Part shown: positions 4,318 to 61,594 of the stretch, one piece after another
How the letters are laid out: every line of letters begins with the position of its first letter
Numbering within the stretch: position 1 is the stretch's first letter
Assembly: GCA_030691865.1 (NCBI GenBank)
Contig: JAUYDL010000029.1
Span: forward strand, 4,721 to 68,720
Direction: 5' to 3'
Source: Candidatus Omnitrophota bacterium
GTDB taxonomy: Bacteria; Omnitrophota; Gorgyraeia; Gygaellales; Profunditerraquicolaceae
Length of the DNA stretch: 64,000 nucleotides
The notes under the pieces: generated by a model
Told to the model about the DNA's origin: nothing
Databases searched by the model: none
What the model saw: only the letters and a program-made list of their open reading frames with translations
Translations under genes and position numbers: made by a program

Positions 4318-4330
4318 GTTTTTAATCCTC

Positions 4331-4516
4331 CTAATGTGGTTGCGACTGCTGTCCGTCAAGCCAATCATCAATTTTATCTTTTTTAAAACGCCATTGCCCG
4401 ACCAGCTTTAGCGCAGGTATCTTATTATGCTTTAACCAGTCATAAATAGTCCGACGGGTAACCTTTAAATAATCCGCCAGATCTTCTATAGTCATTAAAT
4501 TACTATTTACCATCAT
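4331..4516 (-). CDS. Small HTH DNA-binding protein of the excisionase/MerR-like HTH_17 family.
   Basis: The 61-aa product carries ...TIEDLADYLKVTRRTIYDWLKHNKIPALKLVGQWRFKKDKIDDW, a typical excisionase-family HTH. It ends 13 nt upstream of the smc start. Confidence 0.6.
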   Translation of the reverse strand: MMVNSNLMTIEDLADYLKVTRRTIYDWLKHNKIPALKLVGQWRFKKDKIDDWLDGQQSQPH

Positions 4517-4723
4517 ACTCTCCGAAAGACCTCCTGAATTTTATGTTTGCATTATAAACAAAAGAATAATTTTTGTCAAGGAGAATCTTTACATTCTTTA
4601 ACATATGGATACAAATAAGTGCAATATAAGGCAGATTCCTGCAAAACATATCATTGAGCAGTGTAGACAGTGTACGTAACCCTATATTCATCAGTTAGTT
4701 CTGTAAGAAATACTATTCTAAAT

Positions 4724-4780
4724 AAAGGGGACGGTTCTATTTTTTGAAACAAAAAATGAGCAAAAAATAGAACCGTCCCC
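4724..4780. repeat. REP/MITE-like palindromic element, copy 1. It probably acts as an intrinsic terminator after etfA.
   Basis: AAAGGGGACGGTTCTATTTTTT-loop-AAAAATAGAACCGTCCCC, with T/A runs on both sides. It abuts the etfA stop at 4789. Confidence 0.8.
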
Positions 4781-4788
4781 ATTATTTT

Positions 4789-5991
4789 TTATTTACGGAA
4801 AGCTACTTTGAAAGCTTGAGTTAAAGCAGGAATGACCTGAAAAAGATCACCGACAATCCCATAAGTGGCTACCTTAAAAATCGGGGCTTCGGGATCTTTA
4901 TTAATCGCCACAATAATCTTTGAGGATTGCATGCCTACAAGATGTTGAATCTGGCCGCTTATTCCGCAGGCAAAATAAATCTTAGGGCCCACCGTGCGTC
5001 CGGTCTGGCCGACCTGATGTGAATAAGGTATCCATCCGGCGTCAACTGCCGCGCGGCTGGAACCAATTGCTGCCCCTAAAACATGGGCCAAATCTTCTAA
5101 TAGTTTAAAATTTTCCGGCCCACCCATTCCGCGGCCTCCGGAAACAATAATATCTGCTTCGGATAAATTTACCGTAGACTCAATCTCTTCAATAATATCT
5201 AAGAGCTTAGTCCGCGAAAAATAAAGCGCTTGATCAAAACTTTCTTTAATAATTTTCCCCTTTCGTTTTTTATCCGCTGCCATCGGCGCAAATACTTTAT
5301 GCCTGACGGTAGCCATTTGCGGACGGTAAATCGGAGAAATAATTGTCGCCATGATATTGCCGCCGAAAGCCGGGCGTGTCTGCAATAAAATCTTTTTATC
5401 CGGGTCAATATCCAGGCCCGTACAGTCTGCGGTTAAGCCGGCTTTGATATTGATCGCCACGCGCGAAATCAGGGATCGGCCGATATTGGTGGCACCACAC
5501 AAGAAAATCTCAGGCTTATACTTCTTGACCAACTCCACTAAAATATTAGTATAGGGCTCATCCTGAAAATTGGCTAGCTCTGGAGCTTCCACCAGATAAA
5601 TATTATCCGCTCCGCAAAAAATCAGCTCATCTAACTGGTCTTCTAATTTATTGCCAATCAGAACTCCGCTGACGTTAGTATTTAATTTTTTCGCCAACTC
5701 CTGGGCCTTGCCTAATAATTCGTACGAAACCGATTGCACCCGGCTATTTTTCTGCTCGATAAAAACCCAAATTCCCCTATAATCTTCTACACAGGAATTT
5801 GGTGCTGCCGTCTCTAACTTCTCTAGCAGCACCGCGTTAAATATACAGGCATCTTGGCAAGCGCCGCAAAGAGTACATTTTTGTAAATCAATTACCGCCT
5901 TCTTGTCCATCATTCGGATGGCATCAAACGGGCAGGCCTTTACGCAAAGAGTGCAACCCGTACATTTCTCAATAATAATGGAAATCGGCAT
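4789..5991 (-). CDS. etfA: Electron transfer flavoprotein alpha subunit with an N-terminal 2x[4Fe-4S] ferredoxin domain (FixB-like).
   Basis: The N-terminus holds CTGCTLCVKACP and CTLCGACQDAC cysteine clusters. The ETF alpha FAD-binding C-terminus follows (...GISGQIQHLVGMQSSKIIVAINKDPEAPIF). Confidence 0.85.
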   Translation of the reverse strand: MPISIIIEKCTGCTLCVKACPFDAIRMMDKKAVIDLQKCTLCGACQDACIFNAVLLEKLETAAPNSCVEDYRGIWVFIEQKNSRVQSVSYELLGKAQELAKKLNTNVSGVLIGNKLEDQLDELIFCGADNIYLVEAPELANFQDEPYTNILVELVKKYKPEIFLCGATNIGRSLISRVAINIKAGLTADCTGLDIDPDKKILLQTRPAFGGNIMATIISPIYRPQMATVRHKVFAPMAADKKRKGKIIKESFDQALYFSRTKLLDIIEEIESTVNLSEADIIVSGGRGMGGPENFKLLEDLAHVLGAAIGSSRAAVDAGWIPYSHQVGQTGRTVGPKIYFACGISGQIQHLVGMQSSKIIVAINKDPEAPIFKVATYGIVGDLFQVIPALTQAFKVAFRK

Positions 5992-10460: not shown

Positions 10461-11606
10461 CTATTCAATCTTATTAATGAGGAATAAGCAAAGAAAGCTG
10501 GTTAATGCGGATAAGACTATCAACCATTTTAAGCCCACCAGAGGAAGTAGGAATGCGCCGGATAAATTACTGCTTACTCCGGCTAAATTATTTATACTAC
10601 ATAAAAGCGCAAATGAAGTTGCCTCTAACCCGCGAACCGAGTGGCGGGCCATAAAATCCATAACCATCAAAAATATAAACATCCCCAAGAAACTATAAAC
10701 CACATCATAAGCTACTGCGGTTACCGGAGTATAATATAGGTAACTTAAGGTAGTTAATCCTCCCAAAAACACTGAATAATACAGCCACTTCTTAATATTT
10801 ATCTTTTGGCTAAATTTGTAATAAAGTAATGCCCCAATAACCCCAAACACCGTGCTAATCGTGCCTAATGTCCCGATCCACATCTTGCCCCATTTAAAAC
10901 TATCCCGCTGAATAAAAAATAACGGGGTGCCAAAAGATGGAGAGTATTTATACAAAAATATAAATAAACCGATAATCAATATTTTCTTATCACTAAAAAG
11001 TCTTTTTAGGTCCGTAAACAAGGTTGAATGCTTCTTCTCTGTTTTTTCTTCTTGATAAAAATACGCCGGCAGGCCAACCAATAAATAAATCGGAACCAAA
11101 CATAAGAAACCTACTTGATAACCCCATTTCTGGGCGATAAAAGCTCCGCCGATTCCGGTAAATAACCCGGCAATTAAAATTGAAATCCATTGAATGCTCT
11201 GAATCTTCCCGGTGGCCTGGTATTTCTTGCCTTCCACGCACATAATTCCATCAACCGCCACATCACGAAAAGCGGCATTGCCGGAACTAATGATCAGTAA
11301 TGCCACCAAGATAAAAAGCGGCAGATGCATTAAACCTAAAAATAAAACAAAAATTATATCCAGCGCTAAAGAAATAAATATCCAGGCTCGTTTACTAAAT
11401 AAATTATCGATAAGATAACCAATCAACGGCTTAACCAGCCAGGCAAAGGTAGTCAGGCTGCCGATAAGCATGATTTTTTCAGGAGAAAAATTCAGGGTCT
11501 CTTTAAGATAATAAAATAACCCTTGGGCCGGCAGGCCTTCTATGCCTTGCGTAAAATAAACCGCGCTACTTAGAGCAAATATCCAAAATAGTTTTTTATT
11601 CTTCAT
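10461..11606 (-). CDS. MFS-type transporter, folate-biopterin (BT1)-like.
   Basis: 381 aa with about 12 transmembrane segments. The N-terminal region resembles BT1-family transporters. Confidence 0.5.
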   Translation of the reverse strand: MKNKKLFWIFALSSAVYFTQGIEGLPAQGLFYYLKETLNFSPEKIMLIGSLTTFAWLVKPLIGYLIDNLFSKRAWIFISLALDIIFVLFLGLMHLPLFILVALLIISSGNAAFRDVAVDGIMCVEGKKYQATGKIQSIQWISILIAGLFTGIGGAFIAQKWGYQVGFLCLVPIYLLVGLPAYFYQEEKTEKKHSTLFTDLKRLFSDKKILIIGLFIFLYKYSPSFGTPLFFIQRDSFKWGKMWIGTLGTISTVFGVIGALLYYKFSQKINIKKWLYYSVFLGGLTTLSYLYYTPVTAVAYDVVYSFLGMFIFLMVMDFMARHSVRGLEATSFALLCSINNLAGVSSNLSGAFLLPLVGLKWLIVLSALTSFLCLFLINKIE

Positions 11607-12762: not shown

Positions 12763-13955
12763 TTGTCCGTAAGCGCGGCAATCCCGGGTAAAGTTTTACC
12801 CTCCAAGAACTCCAGGCTTGCCCCTCCTCCAGTTGAAATATGCGACATCTTATCTTCTAAATTAAATTTAGCAATCGCGGCTGCCGTATCCCCTCCGCCG
12901 ATTATCGAAGTAGCCTTTAGGCCTGAGATAAATTTAGCCACCTCCAGCGTCCCTTTGCTAAAAGCATCCATCTCAAAAATTCCTAAAGGCCCGTTCCAAA
13001 CAATGGTTTTAGCCAAACTTAATTTATCTTCAAATAACTTAATTGTCTTAGGCCCGATATCCACGGCGATTTTACCGGCCGGTATATCAGGACCCACTAT
13101 TTCGGTTTTAGCCGCCGGATCAATATTATCCACCACTACGTGGTCAATAGGTAAAAGAATCGCTTTATTTAATTTTTTAGCTTGCTCTAAAATCGATCTA
13201 GCTAAATCTAGCTTTTCTTTTTCCAGCCGAGAATTGCCAATCTCTATGCCTTGGCTTTTTAGAAAAGTATAGGCCATACCACCGCCGACAATAATCGCAT
13301 CACACTTAGGAAGCAGATTTTGAATAACCCCGATTTTATCCGATACCTTGGCTCCACCTAAAATAACCATAAACGGTTTTTGGGGATTACTAACCGCGCC
13401 ACCTAAATATTTAATCTCTTTCTCTAAAAGAAATCCCGCGGCAGATTTTAAGAAATGCGTAACACCTTCGCAAGAAGCATGCGCCCGATGCGCCGTACCA
13501 AAAGCATCATTAACAAAAATATCCGCCAAGCTAGCTAACTTTTTGGCAAAATTTGCATCATTTGCTTCTTCTTCGGCGTGGAAACGTAAATTCTCCAGCA
13601 AAATTACTTTTTTTTTAGAATTATCGATTTCCTGTTTGATACTATCGCCAACACAATCATTAAGAAATAATACATCCTGCCCGAGCAGCTCTTTTAAACG
13701 CGCGGCTACCGGTTTGAGGCTGTATTTAGCCACCGCTTTGCCATCCGGCCGGCCTAAATGGCTCATAATTACTAATTTTTTGGCCCCCTTCTTTAAAATA
13801 TATTTTAAAGTAGGCACCGTTGAGCGAATGCGCGTGTCATCAGTAATATTAAGGTTGGCATCCTGCGGCACATTAAAATCCGCCCGCACTAATACTGTCT
13901 TGTTTTTTAAATCGATATCTTTTAAGGTTAATTTCGCCATCTCTTCTTCTTCCAC
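12759..13955 (-). CDS. pgk: Phosphoglycerate kinase.
   Basis: VLVRADFNVP... MSHLGRP... AVSNPQKPFMVILGGAKVSDKIGVI... WNGPLGIFE. Confidence 0.9.
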   Translation of the reverse strand: MEEEEMAKLTLKDIDLKNKTVLVRADFNVPQDANLNITDDTRIRSTVPTLKYILKKGAKKLVIMSHLGRPDGKAVAKYSLKPVAARLKELLGQDVLFLNDCVGDSIKQEIDNSKKKVILLENLRFHAEEEANDANFAKKLASLADIFVNDAFGTAHRAHASCEGVTHFLKSAAGFLLEKEIKYLGGAVSNPQKPFMVILGGAKVSDKIGVIQNLLPKCDAIIVGGGMAYTFLKSQGIEIGNSRLEKEKLDLARSILEQAKKLNKAILLPIDHVVVDNIDPAAKTEIVGPDIPAGKIAVDIGPKTIKLFEDKLSLAKTIVWNGPLGIFEMDAFSKGTLEVAKFISGLKATSIIGGGDTAAAIAKFNLEDKMSHISTGGGASLEFLEGKTLPGIAALTDK

Positions 13956-17358: not shown

Positions 17359-18393
17359 CTATTTATTTTTCCTTAATAGGCGTTTAGCGGCTTTCCGCTC
17401 AATCATTTTTACCGAGCGATCAAAATCGCTGTCTTTTGCATCGCAGGCTTTGATCCTTTTGAGATTAAATTTATCATATTGTACTTCCGCATGCCCAAGC
17501 GCAAGCTCATGAGATATCTTGCCTGCATGAGCGAGAATTTCCCGCTCATTAAGCGACAAAAATCCGTCAAGCTTTTTAATCCAGTCCTTCATATACATGG
17601 GGGTACGGCGCATCGCCTGGCCTTCGGCGAAAATCAGATATTGCTCTACGAGATTGTTGAGCGCCAAAAGTTCTTGTCCATAAAGATAATTCTTCGCGAT
17701 GGCGACATCGTGTTTGCGAACTTTAGCGCCTCGCCAGCTGGTAAGCCCCATGTTCGTCTTTGAGCTGTCAGCGCGTTCGCGTATAATTTCCGCGGCTGTT
17801 TTGCCACTGATTGCCCAATGCATTTTATTCTGCACCGTTTTAAAGAAGTCAATGCTGATTTCCAATGCAGGATTGTAATCTACGCTAGTAGCATAAATGT
17901 CCGTTATCTTCTGATAGAACCGGCGCTCGGAGGTACGAATATCCTGAATACGCCGGACAACCTCATCAAAATAATCAAAGGGTTGATCGGGATTTTTAAG
18001 CCGTTCGTCATCAAGCACAAAACCTTTTACAATATATTCCCGCAAATGCTGGGTTGCCCATTGACGAAACCGCGTGGCGATATGTGATTTAACACGATAT
18101 CCAACAGAAATAATCACATCAAGATTATAATATTCAATTTTTCTTTTGACCGGCCGCGTACCTTCTATTTGAACTGTCAAGAATTCCTTGACAGTTGCCT
18201 TAGGTATTAATTCTCCTTCTTCGTAAATATTTTTAACATGGACGCTGATGTTCTGCTTAGTAGTCTGAAATAGTTCCGCCATCAACTGCTGAGTCAGCCA
18301 GACCGTCTCATTTTGAAAACGAACATCAATTTTAATTTTTCCGTCTTCAGTCTGATAAATTATCAACTCGGACTTATTTTCTTTATTTTCCAC
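17359..18393 (-). CDS. RhuM-family (virulence-protein RhuM-like) protein.
   Basis: The N-terminus reads IIYQTEDGKIKIDVRFQNETVWLTQQLMAELFQTTKQNISVHVKNIYEEGEL, characteristic of the RhuM family. Confidence 0.6.
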   Translation of the reverse strand: MENKENKSELIIYQTEDGKIKIDVRFQNETVWLTQQLMAELFQTTKQNISVHVKNIYEEGELIPKATVKEFLTVQIEGTRPVKRKIEYYNLDVIISVGYRVKSHIATRFRQWATQHLREYIVKGFVLDDERLKNPDQPFDYFDEVVRRIQDIRTSERRFYQKITDIYATSVDYNPALEISIDFFKTVQNKMHWAISGKTAAEIIRERADSSKTNMGLTSWRGAKVRKHDVAIAKNYLYGQELLALNNLVEQYLIFAEGQAMRRTPMYMKDWIKKLDGFLSLNEREILAHAGKISHELALGHAEVQYDKFNLKRIKACDAKDSDFDRSVKMIERKAAKRLLRKNK

Positions 18394-26172: not shown

Positions 26173-26849
26173 ATGAGGACGTCGGCCAAATCCGATTGAT
26201 CGCTATCTTTCAACACATCAATAATTCTCTTGCGTAATTTAGGAGAAAAACCTATAAAGAAAAACTTCAATTTATCTGCTTCACCTTTATCAAGCAATGC
26301 CCTTATAATCCTAATTGCCATATCTAAGTCTTTGATCTTTTTGTCCTTTTTTGGCCGCCTTTCTGATACAATCAACTTATGTAAAGCAAAAAGGGCAGGA
26401 TGAGGCAAATTAATTCTAATGTCCTCAACTACAATATTTATAAGTTTCGCTGTAAGTAAATTAAGAAGCCTTAAGGGTTGAGCATTAATCCCAAGCTGGC
26501 CCAATTTATAAGGCTTATTTAAACCCGCGCCTTTCTCTGTTACCAGAAACTCCAGAATAAGCTCAGGATGATATAATTGGATATAACCGTCAGACCCCTT
26601 AAAATCAATAACAAAACCAAGCCCATCCAACAATTTTTCAATATCAATTTTGTTTTTTATTACAAGTGGCAGGGGAACAAATAAATCAAGGTCTCTTGTT
26701 GTTATAGAAGTGACATACTCTACATCTGAAAAATATTCTTTATAGAAAGGAACACACCAACTCCCAACAAGAACTAAATGTTTTAATATGCCGGAACTAT
26801 CCAGTCTTTTTAAGACTTCAACGCATAATTTATACTGGCTGCTTTCCAC
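26169..26849 (-). CDS. Pol-beta-fold nucleotidyltransferase (AbiEii/GSU2403-like), the toxin-like partner of the upstream small ORF.
   Basis: LVLVGSWCVPFY...TRDLDLFV fits the hG[GS]...[DE]h[DE]h pattern. The protein is a paralog of the 31180..31971 product. It overlaps the upstream ORF by 20 nt. Confidence 0.5.
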   Translation of the reverse strand: MESSQYKLCVEVLKRLDSSGILKHLVLVGSWCVPFYKEYFSDVEYVTSITTRDLDLFVPLPLVIKNKIDIEKLLDGLGFVIDFKGSDGYIQLYHPELILEFLVTEKGAGLNKPYKLGQLGINAQPLRLLNLLTAKLINIVVEDIRINLPHPALFALHKLIVSERRPKKDKKIKDLDMAIRIIRALLDKGEADKLKFFFIGFSPKLRKRIIDVLKDSDQSDLADVLI

Positions 26850-27159
26850 GTAAAGTACTCCGTAAAAACTTAATCTGTTTATTTAGTTTGCTTAAAGACT
26901 TACGGTAACTCGCGCGTTTAGACTGCAAAGACTTATATTTTCTAACTTCATCAGGCGAAAGCTTGCCCTTATAATTGTATAGAAACTTACCATTATGCCT
27001 TTGAACTAAATAAAAATAATAGTGTCCTTTAATTTTTTTACGGGCGAGACACCACTTAGGAAGCTTATCAAGTTCCTCTATATATCTTTTTTTCATACGC
27101 AGAGAGTTACCCAATTCTTCTGACAACACACCCTTAATTAAGCCTTTCATATAGCACAC
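26830..27159 (-). CDS. Small basic protein, a putative antitoxin or regulator partner of the nucleotidyltransferase.
   Basis: 109 aa and Lys/Arg-rich. It is translationally coupled to the NTase gene and has a palindromic operator immediately upstream. Confidence 0.4.
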   Translation of the reverse strand: MCYMKGLIKGVLSEELGNSLRMKKRYIEELDKLPKWCLARKKIKGHYYFYLVQRHNGKFLYNYKGKLSPDEVRKYKSLQSKRASYRKSLSKLNKQIKFLRSTLRGKQPV

Positions 27160-27163
27160 TCCT

Positions 27164-27205
27164 GTTAACCAACAATGTATATAATAATATATATTGTTGG
27201 TTAAC
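27164..27205. promoter_or_regulatory. Perfect 13-bp inverted repeat flanking an AT-rich promoter-like core; a putative autoregulatory operator.
   Basis: GTTAACCAACAAT-gtatataataatatat-ATTGTTGGTTAAC, lying 5 nt upstream of the ORF start at 27159. Confidence 0.45.
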
Positions 27206-27261
27206 TTATGTCAATTAATAATAAACCCCTATTAACAGGATGGTAAAGTCAAATTGGGCAA

Positions 27262-28644
27262 TTACCTTTTAAAATCATCTTCGAATCTTTCAATATCATC
27301 CTCAGCTAGATAATTTCCTGTTTGCACCTCCACAATTCTCAAGGTCTGATTAGTGGTATTTTCTAAGCGATGCTTTTTGCCTTTGGGTATATAAATGCTC
27401 TGGTTGCTATGCACCAGGGAAACTCCCCGGCCGCTTACCACCTTGGCCATACCGGAAACCACTACCCAATGCTCAGCGCGGCTTTTATGCCGCTGTAAAC
27501 TTAAACGTTTATGCGGCGTAATTTCAATAAGTTTAATCTTAAAATCGATGCCTTGCTGTAAAACCGTAAATGATCCCCACGGCCTTCTCTCCGTTAAATG
27601 CACCAGGTGCTCTTTACGGTTTAACGACTTCATCAGGCCCACCAACTTCTTAACATCTTGGGTCCTACCCCTATCACAAACCAACAGGGCATCCGGAGTA
27701 TCCGCGATAATCGTATCTTTAATGCCAATGGTCGAAACCAGCCGATTACCCTTTGAGAATACACACACGCCTTGACTATCTAAATTCAGAGCATCGCCAC
27801 TAACAATATTTCCCTTTTTGTCTTTCGGGAAGATTTCCGATAAAGCCTCCCAACTGCCTAAATCCGTCCAGTAAAAATCAGCAGGAATAAGCGCGATACG
27901 CTTAGAATGCTCCATAATTCCATAATCAACAGATATAGCATCAATTCTCGGCCAAATCTTAGGAATATCATTTACTGAATTAATCAGCCGCAGGTTAGTA
28001 TACAATCCGGGTAAATATTTTTTAACCTCTTCCAGTAAAACCGAAGCCTTCCAGATAAACATCCCGCTGTTCCAGAAAAATTTCTTGTTCTTAAAATATT
28101 CCTTTGCCTTATTTAAATCCGGCTTTTCCAGAAACTTCTCGACTTCCCAATAACCATCTTTTTTTTTATCTACTTTTATATAACCATAACCTATAGATGG
28201 CGCACTGGGTTTAATGCCCAGCGTAACCAAAAGATTATTTTTAGCGCAAGCGATTGCTTTTTTAAACGTCCTCTTAAAATTCTCAATATTCTTAATATAA
28301 TGGTCAGAAGGCAAAACCAAAAGCACCGCATCTTTATCAATCCGGCTGATTAATTTTGCGCACAACCCCACTGCCGGAGCAGTATTCTTGCCCTGCGGCT
28401 CTAAAATTATATTCTTATCCGGAATGCGAAACTTGGTAATCTGGGCTTTAACTTCATAAAAATAAATTTTATTGGTAATAATATAAGTATGCGCCGGGTC
28501 CACCACGCCTTTTAATCGCTGGATGGTCGACTGCAACAAGCTCTCCTGGCCAATAATTTTCATAAACTGCTTTGGCTCAAGCTCGCGTGAAAACGGCCAA
28601 AACCTGCTTCCTACTCCACCGGCTAAAATAACAGCGTATGTCAT
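27262..28644 (-). CDS. manC: Mannose-1-phosphate guanylyltransferase / mannose-6-phosphate isomerase (bifunctional, with a cupin C-terminus).
   Basis: MTYAVILAGGVGSRFWPFSRELEPKQF... and a C-terminal cupin (...HRLENTTNQTLRIVEVQTG). Confidence 0.85.
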   Translation of the reverse strand: MTYAVILAGGVGSRFWPFSRELEPKQFMKIIGQESLLQSTIQRLKGVVDPAHTYIITNKIYFYEVKAQITKFRIPDKNIILEPQGKNTAPAVGLCAKLISRIDKDAVLLVLPSDHYIKNIENFKRTFKKAIACAKNNLLVTLGIKPSAPSIGYGYIKVDKKKDGYWEVEKFLEKPDLNKAKEYFKNKKFFWNSGMFIWKASVLLEEVKKYLPGLYTNLRLINSVNDIPKIWPRIDAISVDYGIMEHSKRIALIPADFYWTDLGSWEALSEIFPKDKKGNIVSGDALNLDSQGVCVFSKGNRLVSTIGIKDTIIADTPDALLVCDRGRTQDVKKLVGLMKSLNRKEHLVHLTERRPWGSFTVLQQGIDFKIKLIEITPHKRLSLQRHKSRAEHWVVVSGMAKVVSGRGVSLVHSNQSIYIPKGKKHRLENTTNQTLRIVEVQTGNYLAEDDIERFEDDFKR

Positions 28645-28720
28645 TTCTCAAACTCCTATCTTAGAGACTGTCCCTAAGCTTTCCATCATTCGTTAAACCA
28701 CATCTTTATTAAGTACGAGA

Positions 28721-29581
28721 TTACGGCTTTTTCAAAATCTCGTTAAACCGCTCAAAAACTTTATCGAGGTTGAAACTCTCACCTACCCGGATAACAGGTA
28801 TCAATTCTGTTTCTATCTGCTTGTGAAGCAATTCTTTTGATTGTTGATCCAAACCGAAATTATGAGAATAATTCGCTCTGTATTTCTCAGCTTCAAGCTT
28901 CTTTTTGAATATGGAAAGGAAGTGCCTGTCTTTAAAGTCAAACTTGGCTTCCGATATAAACCATAAGTCATAATAGTCGCGAATTGCCACATCTTTTCTT
29001 GTGATTGCGGCTTTGAGTTTTTCTGCCACGGCCTCGTTTAATGTAAGCGATAATATCTTATTTTTAGGAATTAAATCCTCTCCCGTAAATGGGTCCTTAT
29101 AAAAATGCGTGATTACATTATGAACGGGCTTGTCGATAGGAGTTTGCCTGAGTGAAATTTCTAGTTTTATCTTCTCATCCTTTCCTGAGATAAATGACGG
29201 ATAGAAAATGTTGAACACATACTGAGTAGAATTATTAAATCCTTCTCCTTCAGGCCTTTCACTTTTTAACTCCAGTAGTTTCAGCAATTCTGGCATCTTT
29301 TCTCTTATTGGGGTGATTGCACGGGATCGCCTAGAACGGGTTTGGAGGCCTTCAGGGTTAAAGTATGTAAAGTCAATGTCTTCGCTTAACCTGTGATAGT
29401 TAAGGTGAATCTTATTTAAAAGCGTCCCGCCTTTAAAAACGATTTTATCGCTTAAATGTGATTCGACGCTGTTTAAGATAAGCGTTAAATAATAATCTTT
29501 TTCGATGGTCTCGAGCCTAAAGTTATATTTTTCCGCAATAAACGGTATTATTTTCTCAAGCTTATCCCTATCCATTGACAA
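28721..29581 (-). CDS. AbiEii-family nucleotidyltransferase toxin (type IV TA / abortive infection, DUF1814-like).
   Basis: IEKDYYLTLIL...IVFKGGTLLNKIHLNYHRLSEDIDFTY. Confidence 0.75.
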   Translation of the reverse strand: MSMDRDKLEKIIPFIAEKYNFRLETIEKDYYLTLILNSVESHLSDKIVFKGGTLLNKIHLNYHRLSEDIDFTYFNPEGLQTRSRRSRAITPIREKMPELLKLLELKSERPEGEGFNNSTQYVFNIFYPSFISGKDEKIKLEISLRQTPIDKPVHNVITHFYKDPFTGEDLIPKNKILSLTLNEAVAEKLKAAITRKDVAIRDYYDLWFISEAKFDFKDRHFLSIFKKKLEAEKYRANYSHNFGLDQQSKELLHKQIETELIPVIRVGESFNLDKVFERFNEILKKP

Positions 29582-30356
29582 TAATTCTCCATCTTTTATC
29601 AGTTTTGCCTTTTTTTGCCTCTGTATCGTATAAGAAAGAATGCCCTTTTATTCCCGCGTCGACTTTGCTAAGCAGTCTTTGGGACACTCCAAGCCTTTCC
29701 AGGAAATATCCCATACGCCTGCGAATGATACAAACGGGATATCGCGCGACATAATCCACGAAGACTGCCATATCCATATTGCTAAGCTGTTCAGTTAAAA
29801 TACTAAATCCTTTTTTCACACCATAAAAATCAAACGCGTCTATCAACGCGCGTTCCTTAGAAGCAAAAACAATATCCTCCTTATCTATTCTGCGCGTTTC
29901 CAAGCCATACATTCTATTGGGCAGCACCTTGATAAGCTTATACCTGATACCGCCAACTTTTTTCTCAAGTGAATATTTTTCATTCACTACATGTATCATT
30001 TGCGCGACTTGATCGGTAAAGCCATATGAATTAAAAACGCTGGAGTATCCTATATAATAATTCGCTCCTCTGGCTAACGCTTTTGCAATCACATATTCGT
30101 TACCCGCCCACTTGCCTCCGGGAGCTTTCATCGGAATAAACAAATACACATTTTTGACAATATTCCTTAACCTATTTTTAATCAAAAGCCGCCTGATAAG
30201 ATAGTCCACCTTGCTTTCATCGTCATAGAAAGAAATAATATCCGCGCGAGTATAGACCTCTTTACCCTCATACTCTAACCTAGCCAAAAGGCCTATTTCG
30301 TTCGGAGTAAGCCCATTATATTTGTTTACTTTTGGTTTCATATTTCTGCCTCCCAA
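29568..30356 (-). CDS. AbiEi-family antitoxin / transcriptional regulator.
   Basis: 262 aa with an N-terminal wHTH-like region and ...IVFASKERALIDAFDFYGVKKGF.... It overlaps abiEii by 14 nt. Confidence 0.65.
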   Translation of the reverse strand: MGGRNMKPKVNKYNGLTPNEIGLLARLEYEGKEVYTRADIISFYDDESKVDYLIRRLLIKNRLRNIVKNVYLFIPMKAPGGKWAGNEYVIAKALARGANYYIGYSSVFNSYGFTDQVAQMIHVVNEKYSLEKKVGGIRYKLIKVLPNRMYGLETRRIDKEDIVFASKERALIDAFDFYGVKKGFSILTEQLSNMDMAVFVDYVARYPVCIIRRRMGYFLERLGVSQRLLSKVDAGIKGHSFLYDTEAKKGKTDKRWRIIVNG

Positions 30357-30416: not shown

Positions 30417-30486
30417 GTTGCAGTAATTATCCTTCCAGGACTCTTCTTTACAATAATAACCACAGACGGAATTATCGTTAATTATT

Positions 30487-31176
30487 TTATAGCCTGCCCG
30501 GTGTTCCTCCGTATAAGTCCAAAGTTAAATCTGATTGCCAATATTCCTTAGTATCAACATTCATTATGGTAAGTTTCCCTGACCATCCGGCTCCGGTATC
30601 AATATTCCAAACATTACACACATGAATCGGTTGAAAAGTATTATAAAGTTCAGTTGGTGTATGACCGACAAAGATATCCTTGTATCGGCCCAATTTACAG
30701 TTGCGCCCCTCTGCTTGCATCTTCCACGCCATATCAAGAAGCCTCCTATCCCAAACCAATGTTTGCGCGCTATGACTCGAAAGCGATATGTCCGGATTAA
30801 ACCCGCCATGCACGAAAACCTGATCATCACGCTCAATCCAAAGATGTCCGCTCTTTAGAAAATCGATGTGTGCCTTCGGCATAGGGCCACCGTTATATGA
30901 CGCTATTGTTCGATCACCGCCTTGACTCGTCCATATCTCCGGCTTATCCCCGCGCAAAGCCCAATCCAGAGCCCACATATCATGGTTACCAATAACCAAA
31001 TTGCAGTGTTTAACCTTTAAAAGCTCATCGATGCTTTGCTTGACATCCGGATAACCATCACACACGTCACCTAAAACGATTAAGCGATCTTGCTTGTAAT
31101 CAAATTTCGAGCGTTCAAAACACTGCATTAGCGCCTTGTAAGCGCCATGAATATCACCAATAGCGTATGTCTTCAC
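30487..31176 (-). CDS. Calcineurin-like metallophosphoesterase (PPP-family Ser/Thr phosphatase-like).
   Basis: MKTYAIGDIHGAYKAL...LIVLGDVCDGYPD...VIGNHDMWA. Confidence 0.75.
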   Translation of the reverse strand: MKTYAIGDIHGAYKALMQCFERSKFDYKQDRLIVLGDVCDGYPDVKQSIDELLKVKHCNLVIGNHDMWALDWALRGDKPEIWTSQGGDRTIASYNGGPMPKAHIDFLKSGHLWIERDDQVFVHGGFNPDISLSSHSAQTLVWDRRLLDMAWKMQAEGRNCKLGRYKDIFVGHTPTELYNTFQPIHVCNVWNIDTGAGWSGKLTIMNVDTKEYWQSDLTLDLYGGTPGRL

Positions 31177-31179
31177 TCA

Positions 31180-31971
31180 TCAATCCTTTGCAATGCTTCT
31201 CTTGAGCCTCTTAAATCTATCAAATATGTCTTGGCGCACATCATGGATATATTCATCAGGACCGTTTTCCTGTTCTACCAAAAGACAGCCTCGACTTGAA
31301 ACCCTTTCAAAAAACTTGTTTATATTATCCGGGACGCCCATTAAATACCCTTTTTCTCTGTACTGGGATATTTCCTTCAAAATCAAGTCAATATCAGGCG
31401 CGTACCGCAAGATGAAGTACATATAATACAAATCTTTAGCCTGTTTTTCCTTGTTCTCCCTATCGATAAAAGTCGCTCCCTTGTGATACAAAAAAGCTGA
31501 CGGTTTCGGACAATTAATAAGATAGCCTTTGTTCTTTTTCATAGCGTAAATGTTTATCGATATCCGGTGTTTTAAGAGGAAATCAAATTTGTCGATTTTA
31601 TTTATTTGTATCTGCTGGCCTACCATTTTCTCGATCGCCTTGATATCCGCGGTAGGATAAGTAATAAACTCTACCGGGACTTTTTCTTTATACAGCACAA
31701 CAGGAAACATCCTGTCCATCTTCAGATGACGTTCTTTGTAATCCAAAGAAGAAAGTGTTTCAAAAATTGTCTTTGAATAATCTCCGGTAACGGATTGATC
31801 TACGCCAAAATCTATATCAACCGTAGTCACCGGATTTCTGACGGATGTTTTCCAAATAAAATTTGAATAGATATACGGCATCCATCCACCGACAAGCGTG
31901 AGGTCAGGAAGATAATCACGCATGTCTTCAAGCACGTTAAAAAACACTGCTTCAATTTTTTCAAGATTCAT
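31180..31971 (-). CDS. Pol-beta-fold nucleotidyltransferase, a paralog of the 26169..26849 product (AbiEii/GSU2403-like).
   Basis: LTLVGGWMPYIY...TTVDIDFGV. It overlaps the upstream regulator gene by 11 nt. Confidence 0.5.
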   Translation of the reverse strand: MNLEKIEAVFFNVLEDMRDYLPDLTLVGGWMPYIYSNFIWKTSVRNPVTTVDIDFGVDQSVTGDYSKTIFETLSSLDYKERHLKMDRMFPVVLYKEKVPVEFITYPTADIKAIEKMVGQQIQINKIDKFDFLLKHRISINIYAMKKNKGYLINCPKPSAFLYHKGATFIDRENKEKQAKDLYYMYFILRYAPDIDLILKEISQYREKGYLMGVPDNINKFFERVSSRGCLLVEQENGPDEYIHDVRQDIFDRFKRLKRSIAKD

Positions 31972-32656
31972 ACAAACCCGTCCCCTTCTCTTCTAAAACT
32001 TTTTTCAGATAATCAGCGTGCTCGCGCCCGCGGGGCTTATAATTATAGAGGTCTAAATAAAGCTGCAAATTAGAAACAACCTTATATCCCTTTATTGCCT
32101 GAGCGCCATAAAATACGCTCTTCTTGTAATGCGGGCGAATAATATGAATGTTCCCACCTCTTACAAGCTCCTTTAAATCAAGTTGTTGGCGTAACTCGAG
32201 AACATCCTTTTTCCAGTCTTCAGGTTCCAAATACAGGCATACCTGATCCGTTACTACAAAAGAAGTTACCAAATTGGCGCCAGAATGGAGTGTGAACGCG
32301 TATTGTTTGTCTTTCAGATAATCTTTAAGCTTCGGTAAAATATTTTTATCTGGAGAATAATAGGTATCGACTTCGTTTAATTCAAAGCGGTACTCTGTTA
32401 CCCAATCGCTGATTAGCTCATCTATATTCGTAAGAAGCGCATAGCTATTCGGCCCACGTTTGACCCGCTCGATGTAGCCCTTTTTTGCCATGGTTTCAAG
32501 CGCTCCTTGTGCCAACCCAATGCTCACCCCATTATCTCCTGTAAAGTCGCGCGTAACCCATTTCTTCTGTGGATCAGACAGCATCTTCCTCAAGATAAAA
32601 GTCGCTTTATCAGCAAAAATATTTTTCATATTCGTTGGGTTATTCATAATGTTCAC
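31961..32656 (-). CDS. wHTH regulator, AbiEi-like antitoxin partner of the 31180..31971 nucleotidyltransferase.
   Basis: 231 aa with an N-terminal wHTH-like region (SIGLAQGALETMAKKGYIERVKRG). It is coupled to the NTase gene. Confidence 0.45.
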   Translation of the reverse strand: MNIMNNPTNMKNIFADKATFILRKMLSDPQKKWVTRDFTGDNGVSIGLAQGALETMAKKGYIERVKRGPNSYALLTNIDELISDWVTEYRFELNEVDTYYSPDKNILPKLKDYLKDKQYAFTLHSGANLVTSFVVTDQVCLYLEPEDWKKDVLELRQQLDLKELVRGGNIHIIRPHYKKSVFYGAQAIKGYKVVSNLQLYLDLYNYKPRGREHADYLKKVLEEKGTGLYES

Positions 32657-32710
32657 TCCTTCTTAATGTTCATTGATTAGTAAACAATATATACCCAGTG
32701 AACATTAATG
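32656..32710. promoter_or_regulatory. Three direct repeats of TGAACATTA, spaced about 22 bp apart. The first overlaps the start codon; a putative operator for the 231-aa regulator.
   Basis: The minus strand reads GTGAACATTAATG ... AATGAACATTAAG ... GTGAACATTATG(start). Confidence 0.4.
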
Positions 32711-32736
32711 TCAAACGTTTTTATTACATGCTCTTT

Positions 32737-32804
32737 TCCCCACGGCCCCCAGCGCCGCGCCTCCACCTTCCCGCTCCACCTTCTAAAATAACTTCGTATG
32801 TCAT
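32737..32804 (-). pseudogene. Chimeric gene-fragment scar: a manC 5' end of about 10 codons fused to heptosyltransferase 3'-end-like sequence.
   Basis: The minus strand ATGACATACGAAGTTATTTTAGAAGGTGGAG matches the manC start ATGACATACGCTGTTATTTTAGCCGGTGGAG. The adjoining CCCCACGGCCCCCAGCGCCGCGC matches 33838-33862. Confidence 0.45.
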
Positions 32805-32904
32805 AAAAATTGATTATATCATGCTCAACTCAAAAATCACATATCTAAGCATGAAATCCAACTATCCTTTTTTTTAAGGTCACAATTTGTGACCTTAAAG
32901 ATTC

Positions 32905-33085
32905 TACCTCTCCCCACGGCCCCCAGCGCCACGCGGTTTTGCCCGGCAGGTCATTCCTGAACAACGCCACCACCGGCATCCCCACGACGCAACAGCCAAA
33001 TGCATCGGCCCACTGTCGCAACTCACCAGTACCCTGCACTGCGTAAAAATCTGCGCTAACTCTACTAAAGTAGTCTTATTAAGAT
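32905..33085 (-). pseudogene. Degenerate duplicate, roughly 80% identical, of the 3' end of the GT2-GT9 heptosyltransferase gene.
   Basis: 32911-33010 aligns to 33838-33940. The 64-aa ORF 32845..33039 encodes VALFRNDLPGKTAWRWGPWGE, compared with PVIALFRNDLPGKTAQRWGPWGEG at the C-terminus of the 33751..35355 product. Confidence 0.5.
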
Positions 33086-33150
33086 GATTCTATCTTGATG
33101 ATCGTGACAATTCTGGTTTGGATTATACAAAAAAATACAATCGGGAATAA

Positions 33151-33543
33151 TTATACACTCAGTTCGCGGGGAATAAAGTCTATGCTGAGTCTTGCTCTTA
33201 AGGCCGCGGCAAGCCTCGCAAGGGTTTTGAGATTAATGCGTGCATTTCTTAAATCCTCCAAGCGCGAGATGGTCTGTTGGGTAGTGTTAACTTTTTTTGC
33301 TAATTCTGCCTGGCTTAAATGCCTCATTTGCCTTAGCTGAGTGATCTTGTAGCCTATTTGCAGCCTTGCCACTTCTTCGTCGTAGGCTTTTCTAAACCCA
33401 GGGCTCTTTCTAAGCTCTTCTTCAATATGCTGGTTTATTGTTTTGGGAACTATTATTTTTCTTTTCATAAGAATCACCTCTATAGACTCTTCAACTGGCC
33501 GTTTATTTCTTTCGTCCTCGTAGTATATGGCTTTCTTTTTCAT
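33151..33543 (-). CDS. XRE-family HTH transcriptional regulator.
   Basis: The C-terminus reads ITQLRQMRHLSQAELAKKVNTTQQTISRLE. Confidence 0.65.
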   Translation of the reverse strand: MKKKAIYYEDERNKRPVEESIEVILMKRKIIVPKTINQHIEEELRKSPGFRKAYDEEVARLQIGYKITQLRQMRHLSQAELAKKVNTTQQTISRLEDLRNARINLKTLARLAAALRARLSIDFIPRELSV

Positions 33544-33565
33544 ACTGACTCTTTAGCCTACTTAA

Positions 33566-33596
33566 AATATACGCTATTTGTGGTGTAATGTCAAGA
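33566..33596 (-). promoter_or_regulatory. Sigma70-like promoter TTGACA-N17-TATATT for the XRE gene.
   Basis: The minus strand reads CTTGACATTACACCACAAATAGCGTATATTTT, about 25 nt upstream of the start at 33543. Confidence 0.35.
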
Positions 33597-33694
33597 TAAA
33601 ATTACATCTTATTTAATGTATGATAACACCAGTCGCGCGCAATCTTTTCAGCATCCTCTTTCTATTACAACAGACGCAACAAGAGACGAAATCT

Positions 33695-33733
33695 AACTAA
33701 AATAAAAGAGCCGAATCTATTAGATCCGGCCCC
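33695..33733 (-). terminator. Rho-independent terminator after the GT2-GT9 fusion gene.
   Basis: The minus strand reads GGGGGCCGGATCTAATAGATTCGGCTCTTTTATTTT: a 10-bp stem with one mismatch, followed by a T-run. Confidence 0.4.
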
Positions 33734-33750
33734 CAAAGATAATCCCAACT

Positions 33751-35355
33751 CTATATTATTCTTTCTTTAATCCTGCAAAGTACTTCCTCAACGCTTATAT
33801 CCTCTAAATTACTCTTCTCTATAACTATATGCCCCTCTCCCCACGGTCCCCAGCGTTGCGCGGTTTTACCCGGCAAATCATTCCTGAACAACGCTATCAC
33901 CGGAGTCCCCACAGAGGCAGCCAAATGCATCGGCCCGCTATCCCCTGAAACAACTAAACTGCCACGTTTCAATAATGCCGCTAATTCCACTAAACTTGTC
34001 TTATTAATCAAATCTATAGTCCCTAAGGGGACTGTCCCCAAAGGGGACTGTCCCCGATCTTCAACTCTTCCCACAAGCACAACCTTCACTTTCATCTCCT
34101 GTATAATTCTCTGCGCTAATTCGCCAAACCGCTCAATTGGCCACTGTTTAACCGGATCACTGGTAAAAGGATGGATGATTACAATTTTTTGATTAATAAA
34201 ATATTTATATAAATTATCATTTACTTTAATCGCTAGTGACAAATCCTGCGTTTTTGCCCCCAGCAACCCTACCAACTCCAAATTACAATCTACCTCATGC
34301 CGGCTACCTTGATGCTTGGTATCTTTTAATTTATGGGTAAGCAAAAACCCCCATTTCCTATCATAACCCACACGCACAGGGATGCCCGCTAAAAAAATAC
34401 TCTGATGTGCTTCTTTAGTAGGATTTAGGACAACACAGAGATCAAACCTGTGCTTCCTTAATCCTTTCCTGATTTGGTCCCAAACTACTACCTGATCAAC
34501 ACATTCCACCGCAGTCGCCAACTCACTAACTGTAGAATTTACCGCTAAAGTAAGCTCTGCCTGCGGATATCTCTCTTTCAACGCCCGAATAGCCGGAATA
34601 TTCAACAAAAACTCTCCAAACCGGTCATTACGTATGACGAGTATTCTCTTGATCATGGAACACCCCACGGGCAAGCCCGTGGTACCTAAATTTACCCCCT
34701 GACGTATAATAGCTTGCCCATCCAGTGACATCCCCCGAAGCAGTTCTTTCTTCGCATTCATCTGCGAAGGGGGATAGAAAATAGGCACTTCCATTACGCG
34801 CATTTTTTTTCTTAAGGCTTTAGTTAAAATCTCAAACGCAGTATCCGCGCCTTTTAATTCCGGCGCTAAATTTAAAAAACTTTCCCTGCGCATAAGCTGA
34901 CAATGCGTAAACCAGTCATACAACTTAACACCAAATAGAATATTTAATATCAGGGTTGAGAAATAATTTTTAACTTTCGCCAACCCCGAGGTCCCTTGAT
35001 GCATTTTGCTAAAACGTGCACCCAGAACGATATCCGCCCCTGAATCCTTGATCGCCCCCAAAAGCTTAAGATAATTACCAGGGTCATACCTTAAGTCCCC
35101 ATTCTGGATGAGAATAAATTCACCGGTGGCATTCTGTAACCCCGTGCGCACCGCAGCCGCCTTTCCGCGATTACTGACATGGTGGATAACCTTTAAGCTA
35201 TTAAGAGAAAGCCCCCTTAAGATTAACTCAGTATTATCCTTAGAGCAATCGTTAACCACGATAATCTCTTTCTCAACAGAAAGATTGCTAACCTTATTGA
35301 TTACTGCTTCAATAGTTTTCTCTTGATTATAAACCGGCAAAATTACAGAAATCAT
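33751..35355 (-). CDS. Bifunctional fusion of a GT2 glycosyltransferase (N-terminus) and a GT9 heptosyltransferase (C-terminus).
   Basis: The N-terminus reads MISVILPVYNQEKTIEAVINKV...IIVVNDCSKDNT (GT2). From about residue 235 it reads ILVIRNDRFGEFLLNIPAIRALKERYP... (GT9, RfaF/WaaC-like). Confidence 0.7.
   Translation of the reverse strand: MISVILPVYNQEKTIEAVINKVSNLSVEKEIIVVNDCSKDNTELILRGLSLNSLKVIHHVSNRGKAAAVRTGLQNATGEFILIQNGDLRYDPGNYLKLLGAIKDSGADIVLGARFSKMHQGTSGLAKVKNYFSTLILNILFGVKLYDWFTHCQLMRRESFLNLAPELKGADTAFEILTKALRKKMRVMEVPIFYPPSQMNAKKELLRGMSLDGQAIIRQGVNLGTTGLPVGCSMIKRILVIRNDRFGEFLLNIPAIRALKERYPQAELTLAVNSTVSELATAVECVDQVVVWDQIRKGLRKHRFDLCVVLNPTKEAHQSIFLAGIPVRVGYDRKWGFLLTHKLKDTKHQGSRHEVDCNLELVGLLGAKTQDLSLAIKVNDNLYKYFINQKIVIIHPFTSDPVKQWPIERFGELAQRIIQEMKVKVVLVGRVEDRGQSPLGTVPLGTIDLINKTSLVELAALLKRGSLVVSGDSGPMHLAASVGTPVIALFRNDLPGKTAQRWGPWGEGHIVIEKSNLEDISVEEVLCRIKERII
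34027..34055. repeat. In-frame tandem copies of the palindrome GGGGACTGTCCCC, which look like collapsed REP cores.
   Basis: GGGGACTGTCCCCAAAGGGGACTGTCCCC encodes GTVPLGTVPLG inside the GT2-GT9 fusion. Confidence 0.5.
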
Positions 35356-60202: not shown

Positions 60203-61594
60203 TTAAGATGCTTCCTGAGCCAATCTTCTCATCTGGCCTGTCATATACAGCGGTAATGTTAATACCTTATCGCATAAGGATAGCTTCTCCTGCGAAAAAC
60301 GTATACCAAACGGAGGCTTCTTTTCTTTTATAAATAGTTTTAACGATTTAAGCGTGCCCGTTTTACCTGCTTTAACCTCCACCGGCAATATTAGAGAATC
60401 TAACGCCACAACATAATCAACCTCTGCTGAACTATTTTTTTTATCACGCGCCCAAAAAAACAGCCCGCGCTCTAAATAACTATCAGTTTGAGCCCTTAAT
60501 TCCTGGCCAATAAACTGCTCTGTTACGGCGCCGGCGTTAATCTGAATAAAATCATTCGTTAGTGTAAGCTTGGTTTGCAGGCCACAGGCATTCTGCATTA
60601 GGCCTACATCAAGAAAGTTTAATTTAAATTTCATTTCATTAATTTGCGCTTCCAAAGGAAGCCCTGAAGCGGCAGTCGCGTATACCGGATAAATAATACC
60701 GGCTAATTTTAAAAGGTTAAGTGCCTGTTTAATATCCCTTGATTTGCTGTCCGGATCAATATTCGAATACTTGATGCGATCCCCAACCAGGCGCGGAGCT
60801 TCATCTAATACCTTTTGCAAATATTTATGCTCGGAAGATTTAGCGTATTTCCCAAAATCACTCCGATACGTTTGAAGCAATGAATTCTGGATTCGCTGAC
60901 AATTTAAAAAATTCTTGCTTTCTAGATACTCTTTAACTACAGCCGGCATGCCCCCCACAATAAGGTATATCCGCAACAGATCCAACAATTTCTTATGCAC
61001 CGCGCCATCGATTACGCTATTCAAGCTTATCTGGCCCAAATAATGACGCAACTGCTCATTCCCCGAAGCCGTTAAAAACTCAAGCCATGATAAAGGCTCA
61101 AGATATATAAACTGAACTCTGCCTACCGGCATTCTAAAATTTGAATTGTTAAGGGCAAATTCCATCAATGAACCTGCCCCGATAACAGCAAGTTTATTGT
61201 ACTTTTCCTTGAAATACCGCAGAGCCATTATCGCGTTTGGGCATTCCTGTATCTCATCAAGAAAAAGCAATGTTTTCCCTGCTTCTATGGTTTGACCCGT
61301 AAGCAACTGCAATTTATTAATAATCTCAATAGGATCAAGCGTAGTGAAACACTGCTTAAGTTCAGGCCTAAATTCGAAGTTGACGACAACTAAATTTTTG
61401 AATGCCTTCTTCCCAAACTCTTCTACAATATAACTCTTGCCTACTTGCCGCGCGCCTCGCAATAATAAGGGCAACCTATCAATACGCTCTTTCCAATTAA
61501 ATAAATCATTCTCTATATCTCTTTTCATAGTATATCCTTTCCAACTATGGCTAATATCCAAGGATATAATATAACAATTTTGGCTATAATACAA
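60203..61594 (-). CDS. AAA+ ATPase with a C-terminal DUF4143-type domain (COG1373).
   Basis: LLLRGARQVGKSYIVEEF (Walker A). Confidence 0.6.
   Translation of the reverse strand: MYYSQNCYIISLDISHSWKGYTMKRDIENDLFNWKERIDRLPLLLRGARQVGKSYIVEEFGKKAFKNLVVVNFEFRPELKQCFTTLDPIEIINKLQLLTGQTIEAGKTLLFLDEIQECPNAIMALRYFKEKYNKLAVIGAGSLMEFALNNSNFRMPVGRVQFIYLEPLSWLEFLTASGNEQLRHYLGQISLNSVIDGAVHKKLLDLLRIYLIVGGMPAVVKEYLESKNFLNCQRIQNSLLQTYRSDFGKYAKSSEHKYLQKVLDEAPRLVGDRIKYSNIDPDSKSRDIKQALNLLKLAGIIYPVYATAASGLPLEAQINEMKFKLNFLDVGLMQNACGLQTKLTLTNDFIQINAGAVTEQFIGQELRAQTDSYLERGLFFWARDKKNSSAEVDYVVALDSLILPVEVKAGKTGTLKSLKLFIKEKKPPFGIRFSQEKLSLCDKVLTLPLYMTGQMRRLAQEAS

Follow-up and report, generated by a model that had tools for sequence, protein, structure and literature searches.

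Integrative elements with gene 3′ ends as their targets, whether in tRNA, tmRNA or protein genes, bring a replacement 3′ end with them. At rhs and contact-dependent growth inhibition (CDI) as well as type VI secretion system (T6SS) effector–immunity loci, C-terminal ends are displaced and accumulate as orphan arrays, for which homology-facilitated illegitimate recombination (HFIR) has been proposed as the mechanism (Kirchberger et al. 2017, PMC5361080; for rhs displacement, Jackson et al. 2009, as cited in PMC5361080). HFIR has been obtained experimentally in Acinetobacter, Streptococcus pneumoniae and Pseudomonas stutzeri (de Vries & Wackernagel 2002; Prudhomme et al. 2002; Meier & Wackernagel 2003; all via PMC5361080) and is also described for conjugation in E. 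coli (PMC3240628). Defence genes, in turn, are found in hotspots flanked by core genes, such as cDHS1 and cDHS2 of Pseudomonas aeruginosa (Johnson et al. 2023, PMC10250203), which show no obvious mobile-element machinery, for which transfer through flanking homology has been proposed, and at which physical exchange scars are normally absent (PMC10250203). Here we describe a locus within a 64-kb stretch of DNA (the window) of a Candidatus Omnitrophota bacterium, probably a metagenome-assembled genome. Between an intact heptosyltransferase-family gene with GT2 and GT9 domains (GT2-GT9, or GT9 for short) and the gene manC lie toxin–antitoxin (TA) and defence cassettes together with two gene fragments, FragA and FragB. 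We read this arrangement as the result of serial 3′-end displacement by HFIR, anchored in GT9 and closed by an illegitimate join at the far end, and give this reading a probability of roughly 0.6.

The locus resembles the rhs, CDI and T6SS arrays in having a gene body that is conserved, a 3′ end that varies and linked downstream genes, in that newcomers would recombine through the conserved part without the involvement of an integrase, and in that older, core-bearing stubs with their cargo lie downstream in the same orientation. It differs from them in that the displaced gene is a housekeeping glycosyltransferase with a short, hitch-hiking tail and no toxin domain, and the cargo consists of self-contained TA and Abi cassettes with their own promoters instead of cognate immunity genes; moreover, one junction carries the far flank (the 5′ end of manC), and the stubs are far more decayed. 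With HFIR it would share one homologous anchor and one illegitimate joint at a microhomology of a few bases, foreign DNA being trapped beside a conserved gene, whereas, unlike in the experimental cases, the process is inferred here from sequence alone and in an uncultivated organism. Like cDHS1 and cDHS2, the site has fixed flanking core genes, a strain-variable defence and TA content and no obvious mobile-element machinery, but it is tiny (0–5 kb), lies at a 4-nt stop/start overlap in a lipopolysaccharide (LPS)/O-antigen operon, and has retained physical scars of exchange. As at the target sites of 3′-end integrative elements, the target 3′ sequence is duplicated and the target gene left intact; unlike there, no integrase was found, the repeats are non-identical and do not delimit units, and their order and orientation do not fit attL and attR. 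The process is of a kind already known, here in an unusual lineage and at an unusual locus, and no new kind of mechanism is revealed.

All genes of the region are on the minus strand, and coordinates joined by an arrow are given in the order of transcription. An O-antigen-ligase-like gene is followed by GT2-GT9 (33751–35355), a 130-residue “XRE” open reading frame (ORF), FragB, a spacer of 100 nt and FragA; AbiEi_2, NTP_transf_8, metallophosphoesterase, AbiEi and AbiEii genes come next, and then manC (27262–28644), an intact gene of the GDP-mannose pyrophosphorylase/mannose-6-phosphate isomerase type. Beyond manC, a 109-residue ORF and an NTP_transf_8 gene precede a second GT9 gene (GT9-2). 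Domains were assigned with Pfam and defence genes with PADLOC, structured RNAs were searched for with Rfam, and a sequence scan located hairpins and sigma-70-like promoters. For comparison, 160 related loci anchored on GT9 were fetched, together with further contigs (L161–L166), L161 being a Logan assembly contig of sample SRR13727536. By sequence comparison, the closest relatives are 82% identical at the protein level for GT2-GT9 and 89% for manC. Scans of genome contigs and metagenome contigs with the GT2-GT9 protein yielded nothing above 82% and 79% protein identity, respectively, and exact-protein look-ups of GT2-GT9, XRE and manC matched no record.

FragA and FragB are non-functional pseudogene scars, and their matches to GT9 and manC are real and well above chance (E-values for window-internal matches were calculated against the 64-kb window). 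An earlier reading made from the letters of this stretch only (the sequence-only reading) had seen a chimeric manC/GT9 remnant and a second GT9 fragment here; both are where it placed them, their translations are as it wrote them, and comparison of the region 32700–33100 with the GT9 and manC regions gives significant matches for both. FragB (33085→32907) aligns to resident GT9 34010→33834 with an identity of 75.7% over 177 nt (E 7e-30), so the similarity stands but the figure of about 80% first given for it does not. The 3′ 79 nt match at 86% and the 5′ 90 nt at 70%, and between these two blocks a 2-nt insertion breaks the frame, whose last residues are …RWGPWGE. FragA joins two pieces. The manC half (32767–32821) comprises a manC upstream region with the box TGATATAAT and the first 38 nt of manC. 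The latter (32767–32804) match the start of resident manC (28607–28644) at 32 of 38 positions (E 8e-7), and the whole half matches the related loci L014 (45/55, E 9e-11) and L011 (43/52) in an alignment that extends 14–17 nt 5′ of the ATG. The GT9 piece of FragA (32730–32762, codons RRWGPWGKEH, as delimited by alignments and junction sequences) aligns over 33–36 nt (32725–32760) to resident 33826–33861 at 29 of 36 positions (E 4e-4).

What the resident gene and both fragments have in common is a core of RRWGPWGE codons, present in three copies at 33839–33861, 32912–32934 and 32741–32762, the cores of FragA and FragB differing at one position (23/24, E 1e-5). The core is located 88 nt 5′ of the GT9 stop codon and is not, as had been supposed for FragA, the very 3′ end of the gene; the last ~25–30 GT9 codons are missing from both fragments. 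Within FragA, the 5′ end of manC precedes the GT9 core, the opposite of the native gene order, which marks a new illegitimate junction rather than a relic of an old GT9–manC adjacency. Among the 160 related loci, only in the window does RRWGPWG occur at this site more than once, and none of the others contains duplicated GT9-3′ or manC-5′ pieces or comparable scars. Contig L161 is 100% identical to window 32905→31802 (1104 nt), so that the FragA junction is reproduced by a second assembler. The end of this contig coincides exactly with the FragB boundary at 32905; because of this, co-existing variants that differ upstream of 32905 may be present in sample SRR13727536.

Judged by its alignments, FragB is a piece of a foreign allele, not the diverged duplicate of resident GT9 for which it had been taken. 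Its best DNA match is L123 (143/175 nt, 82%, E 1e-41), and its protein, once the 2-nt insertion is corrected, is 90% identical to the L123 GT9 and 71% to the resident one, these two being just 53% identical to each other. FragB also carries the residues ELAQIF.QCRVLVSC, diagnostic of the L123 subtype. Its differences from the resident gene are distributed over the codon positions as 12/9/22, and this preference for third positions indicates that FragB diverged while it was a working gene and was inactivated later. The GT9 piece of FragA, which is too short to be diagnostic, also matches L123 best (35/40; core 24/24).

The foreign material extends beyond GT9. In three ordered matches, window 33082→32767 runs colinear with the entire GT9–cargo–manC allele of L014: the 3′ part of GT9 (130/176, E 6e-31), the last codons of a 66-aa ORF with 13 nt downstream of it (33/41, E 2e-6; window 32873→32833, L014 3558–3598), and the manC upstream region, including the TGATATAAT box, with the first 38 nt of manC (the 45/55 match given above). 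The remnant of old cargo between FragB and the manC half (32833–32906) thus holds the last ~18 codons (…KKRIVGFHA*, compared with …KKTIGFHT* in L014) and 13 nt downstream of an L014-like 66-aa ORF. Because of this colinearity, we take FragB together with the spacer and FragA's manC half as the trimmed relic of a whole alternative allele. In cargo-bearing alleles, the TGATATAAT box (window 32813–32821; L014 ~3770; L011 ~11692) is found ~8 nt 5′ of the manC ATG, and its nearness to the ATG suggests a leaderless manC transcript, whereas the resident manC has a conventional AGGAG ribosome-binding site instead. A perfect palindrome, AAGGTCACAAATTGTGACCTT, lies at 32878–32898 inside the remnant of the 66-aa-ORF-like gene. 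It was considered as a terminator and rejected, being located within a gene remnant and not called by the terminator scan, and for spacer and hairpin alike Rfam gave merely a sub-threshold chance match to a structured RNA.

The resident GT9 gene is itself a mosaic, as seen by sliding identity and by a three-sequence breakpoint test on informative sites (Fisher, five pairs of relatives). Its body is L001-like, with an identity of 87–93%, while its last ~400 nt, from about 34110–34170 to the stop codon, resemble L002, L007 and L092, that is, cargo-bearing alleles. The breakpoint falls ~360–420 nt 5′ of the stop, with informative sites divided 103:30 upstream and 38:63 downstream of it (p 8e-10, down to 2e-13 with other pairs). 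In manC, which is L001-like throughout, sliding identity reveals no foreign 5′ segment of the kind expected if the anchor had been on the manC side. Across divergent gene bodies, tail families track the type of cargo and not the body: …DITV… tails go with empty sites, …KNIRYS* with AbiE cargo, and …EAVRRQxxKEKKx* with methyltransferase cargo, even in L123. L123 and L002 share 40–67% identity in the body, but 78–82% from ~90 nt 5′ of the core through the tail and the cargo. The mosaic gene, the covariation of tail and cargo and the L123/L002 pair together argue that alleles made of a GT9 3′ end and its cargo are exchanged by crossovers in conserved GT9. The suggestion that the 3′ end had been reconstituted and older ends displaced was therefore essentially right, the last ~400 nt being of a foreign lineage and tails co-transferring with cargo.

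Two copies of a perfect palindrome, GGGGACTGTCCCC, are found at 34027–34055, in frame within the GT9 linker, where they code for GQSP/GTVP; the number of these motifs at the linker position varies among relatives (L093, L007, L009). A related near-palindrome lies 18 nt upstream of manC (28662–28680), and L017 has a different 18-nt repeat at the two equivalent positions (11179–11196 and 12805–12822). The linker palindromes look like repetitive extragenic palindromic (REP)-like elements tolerated within a coding region, near the recombination breakpoint.

The order GT9, manC, GT9-2, aminotransferase, GT2 is kept across the 160 fetched loci. About 30 have a GT9 stop that either overlaps the start of manC (ATGA) or is separated from it by a gap of at most 90 nt, and because of the ATGA overlap in these relatives GT9 and manC are taken to have been adjacent and translationally coupled in the ancestor, in agreement with the proposal that manC once directly followed GT9. 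A roughly equal number (~30) have 0.7–2.6 kb of unrelated cargo at the junction. With varied cargo in roughly as many relatives as there are empty sites, the junction is a hotspot of the core-gene-flanked defence/TA type: empty and variably filled sites occur, and the cargo is rich in TA and defence genes. It consists of a methyltransferase in L002, L011 and L123, AbiEi/AbiEii in L009, a nucleotidyltransferase (NTase) with an XRE gene in L017 and L029, and a PilZ protein with the 66-aa ORF in L014. In L006, an L009-type AbiEi/AbiEii module is followed, after ~50 nt, by an L017-type NTase–XRE module without gene-end scars; cassettes are thus stacked at the hotspot outside the window as well, but there without trace. 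Occupied relatives keep the full GT9 tail, with the cargo 3′ of the stop codon and not at the core, and no homologue of the window's own cargo was found at the hotspot in the 160 loci. The sequence-only view that recombination at the 3′ end of GT9 brought in the TA, defence and XRE modules is supported.

The cassettes between GT9 and manC have sharp ends of their own. Directly past the GT9 stop codon there is an intrinsic-terminator-like hairpin (33706–33734), and then a decayed higB(Gp49)–higA cassette (33151–33624), which matches L162 in two blocks, 270–412 to 33624→33481 (93%) and 741–1070 to 33480→33151 (87%), 328 nt of higB having been lost relative to L162 at 33481/33480. Its promoter (33594→33566) agrees with the consensus at 11 of 12 positions. 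In the “XRE” ORF (33543→33151, HTH_3 domain), a complete higA is fused to the opening ~21 codons of a Gp49-type higB, which makes it an orphan antitoxin whose toxin has been lost. The 65-nt stretch between the higA stop and FragB (33086–33150) has no match in the fetched loci. Downstream of FragA, the three-gene cassette of AbiEi_2, NTP_transf_8 and metallophosphoesterase (30482–32729) recurs in L162–L166, from other metagenomes, with 85–94% DNA identity and with unrelated flanks in every genome. The homologous stretch begins at 32729/32722, just 5′ of the promoter (32714→32686, 11 of 12 sigma-70-like consensus positions), and ends at 30482, which is 5 nt beyond the last stop codon. For this cassette 737 homologues were found, the top 120 being at least 72% identical, and elsewhere it lies within TA-rich islands. 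Since none of its three proteins has a PADLOC match, it may represent an undescribed three-component TA or defence system. The AbiEi and AbiEii ORFs that follow (28721–30356) were recognized by PADLOC (AbiEi, 30356→29568, E 1.9e-42; AbiEii, 29581→28721, E 3.4e-39), the latter also by Pfam; they are adjacent and by gene content would form an AbiE (type IV TA/abortive infection) system.

Both the higBA and the three-gene cassette run from promoter to stop codon, with no terminal repeats at 33624/33151 or 32729/30482; each ends at the stop codon or no more than ~5 nt from it, without an attC-like inverted repeat. An integron cassette array was considered and rejected, given the lack of a detected integrase, the cassettes' own strong sigma-70-like promoters and the lack of an attC-like repeat. 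A Pfam scan of every window ORF of at least 120 aa, those of the cassettes included, detected no integrase, recombinase or transposase domain. A further cassette of 1089 nt (26173–27261, minus strand) lies between manC and GT9-2, two genes that overlap (ATGA) in all relatives. It contains a palindromic promoter region, the 109-aa ORF and the NTP_transf_8 gene; similarity to relatives breaks off at the stop of manC and is found again from the next ATG, and the last gene of the cassette recreates the ATGA.

Starting from an ancestor in which the GT9 stop and the manC start overlapped (ATGA), the displacement reading would run as follows. Alternative alleles, each comprising the 3′ end of GT9, a cargo and the 5′ end of manC, would be swapped between lineages by homologous recombination in conserved GT9. 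At least two incoming alleles would have recombined homologously on the GT9 side only, their far ends being joined illegitimately, at short microhomology, within the recipient's own GT9 3′ region, so that every event would supply a new GT9 3′ end and push the previous stub and its cargo downstream. In a first event, the donor sequence up to manC position +38 would have been joined to the recipient core, creating FragA; in a second, a sequence 65 nt past higA would have been joined ~190 nt before the core, creating the left edge of FragB. Three units would result: unit 1, intact GT9 with the decayed higBA cassette; unit 2, FragB with the old cargo remnant and the manC 5′ end; and unit 3, the GT9 core stub with the three-gene cassette, AbiEi/AbiEii and intact manC. 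Later deletions would have removed the tail of unit 2 with most of its cargo, and most of higB. Judged topologically from the order of the junctions, a GT9-side anchor alone would yield both junctions by a simple double crossover. The manC|GT9 joint of FragA falls in GGGAAGG, readable from either manC (GGAGTAGGAAGC) or GT9 (CCCGGGAAGGCCG in L104), and the GT9|cassette joint falls in TGTAA, which occurs both in GT9 (GGGCATATTGTAATCG in L123) and at the cassette's left end (TATATAATGTAAACGC in L164). The features of an array built by displacement are present: the tail is linked to the cargo, the main gene is mosaic, and same-orientation stubs carry the core and then older cargo, FragB being followed by the remnant of the L014-like 66-aa ORF and the FragA core by the three-gene cassette. 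The anatomy of the locus, its fragments' foreign origin, the mosaic GT9, the tie between tail and cargo, the hotspot and the empty recombinase scan are shown by the data; the order of events, the side of the anchor and the route of DNA entry are inferred.

The same scars could have been formed in reverse, either with a manC-side anchor or by integration of a circularised GT9-3′–cargo–manC-5′ fragment through a single Campbell-type crossover. A circle closed at the manC-5′|GT9 core joint would, with one crossover, also give the tandem arrangement, and the left edge of FragB (junction J1) is equally compatible with either anchor; on topological grounds, however, a manC-side anchor requires a duplication-type crossover for the FragA junction, and it is GT9 that has a clear foreign segment at its 3′ end while manC has none at its 5′ end. 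We consider this unlikely, though less so than the other alternatives. Next comes an in situ tandem duplication of a stretch reaching from the 3′ end of GT9 to the 5′ end of manC, followed by decay and by independent cassette insertions and deletions in each copy. The manC-5′|GT9-3′ joint has the exact look of a duplication junction, it shows microhomology, and the cores of FragA and FragB are near-identical (23/24). A local copy decaying neutrally is nevertheless at odds with the L123-type character of FragB (90% protein identity against 71% to the resident, with L123-subtype residues) and with its third-codon-position bias; the cargo remnant and manC upstream region of unit 2 match L014 and L011, not the region upstream of resident manC, and more independent events would be needed than for displacement. 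We regard it as somewhat less probable again. The sequence-only reading had called the divergence of the duplicate consistent with att-like, element-borne sequence. As a full account, this would be site-specific integration of now degenerate elements at the GT9 3′ end, with the cores as att sites (attL, attR or hybrids) and the integrase lost or acting in trans. Three direct copies of a GC-rich core of 23–24 nt in a region of ~40% GC, 23 of 24 positions shared by the FragA and FragB cores, the loss of stub similarity to GT9 within ~10–20 nt past the core and the foreign-like 3′ end of resident GT9 would all suit such elements. Against them stand the empty recombinase scan of window ORFs of at least 120 aa and the coding role of the core: it specifies RWGPWGE, a conserved motif, and is just as similar in dozens of orthologues, so that the protein explains its conservation. 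Nor does the order suit attL and attR, as the intact copy comes first, native tail included, and the stubs with foreign downstream sequence come after it; the cores do not bracket the cassettes, the higBA and three-gene cassettes having sharp ends of their own, no end repeats and unrelated flanks elsewhere; in relatives, cargo begins past the GT9 stop and not at the core; and FragB, spacer and manC-5′ are colinear with a chromosomal allele including its far flank, which a self-bounded element would not carry. Integration of this kind thus appears very improbable.

An artefact in which an assembler concatenated strain variants of the hotspot via shared GT9 and manC sequence is the least probable account. 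Omnitrophota genomes are metagenome-assembled, strain-variable hotspots often break or mis-join assemblies, and L161 ends exactly at the FragB edge; but the repeats have no more than ~20 nt of exact sequence in common, which is not enough for k-mer mis-joins at the final k normally used, the FragA junction unites unrelated sequences without a shared k-mer and is reproduced at 100% over 1104 nt by the second assembler, and the fragments are truncated, frameshifted and internally deleted, unlike concatenated intact strain alleles. Several points do weigh against serial displacement. No intermediate states were found, the closest relatives being only ~80% identical in protein and the 160 loci without comparable scars. 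The microhomologies, of 5–7 nt, are weak evidence, as the parental sequences are inferred from distant relatives. No partners were identified for J1 (about 33086–33100) or for the deletion junction J2, and 33086–33150 is without a match in the fetched loci. Omnitrophota are not known to take up DNA, and the structure is read from assemblies of a probable metagenome-assembled genome. The 26173–27261 cassette sits without scars at its ATGA overlap, so that some insertions are precise. Finally, both GT9 stubs end within ~10–20 nt of each other, just past WGPWGE, a coincidence that independent illegitimate events do not predict and that could hint at a preferred site. These coinciding ends, the scarless cassette at the manC|GT9-2 overlap with its recreated ATGA and the scarless stacking of L009- and L017-type cassettes in L006 are the grounds for a further, quite speculative reading, to which we give little credence, if slightly more than to site-specific integration. 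In it, the ATGA overlaps of the LPS operon and the GC-rich RWGPWGE core would form a capture platform at which promoter-to-stop TA/defence cassettes are precisely stacked, either independently of a recombinase or with one acting in trans, a functional analogue of an integron on a housekeeping gene.

Under the displacement reading, the locus preserves the usually erased scars of TA and defence cassettes piling up between core genes without mobile-element machinery. It would show that the 3′ end of a housekeeping gene can hitch-hike with cargo across deep lineages, that a 4-nt translational overlap can turn into a hotspot, and that envelope-gene alleles are exchanged by recombination in Omnitrophota, an uncultivated phylum. 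For annotators, FragA, FragB and the “XRE” ORF are pseudogene remnants, and the chimeric nature of the resident GT9 matters for phylogenies that use this gene.

Elsewhere in the window, lone accessory-type genes occur at 17359–18393 and 60203–61594, one of the RhuM family (E 3e-111) and the other an AAA_14/DUF4143 ATPase; placed amid housekeeping and polysaccharide genes, they may be further single-gene insertions. The ORF-poor left end (1–4400) is taken up on the minus strand by a long SMC-like gene, which codes for more than 1469 aa and continues beyond the window edge. An rRNA operon had been considered for positions 1–4800 and was rejected, as there are no Rfam matches and the stretch corresponds to the SMC-like ORF. 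Just 5′ of this gene, a small ORF (~4331–4516, minus strand) has the look of an excisionase/MerR-type helix-turn-helix protein (…RRTIYDWLKHNKIPALKLVGQWRFKK…), a family to which we presume it belongs.

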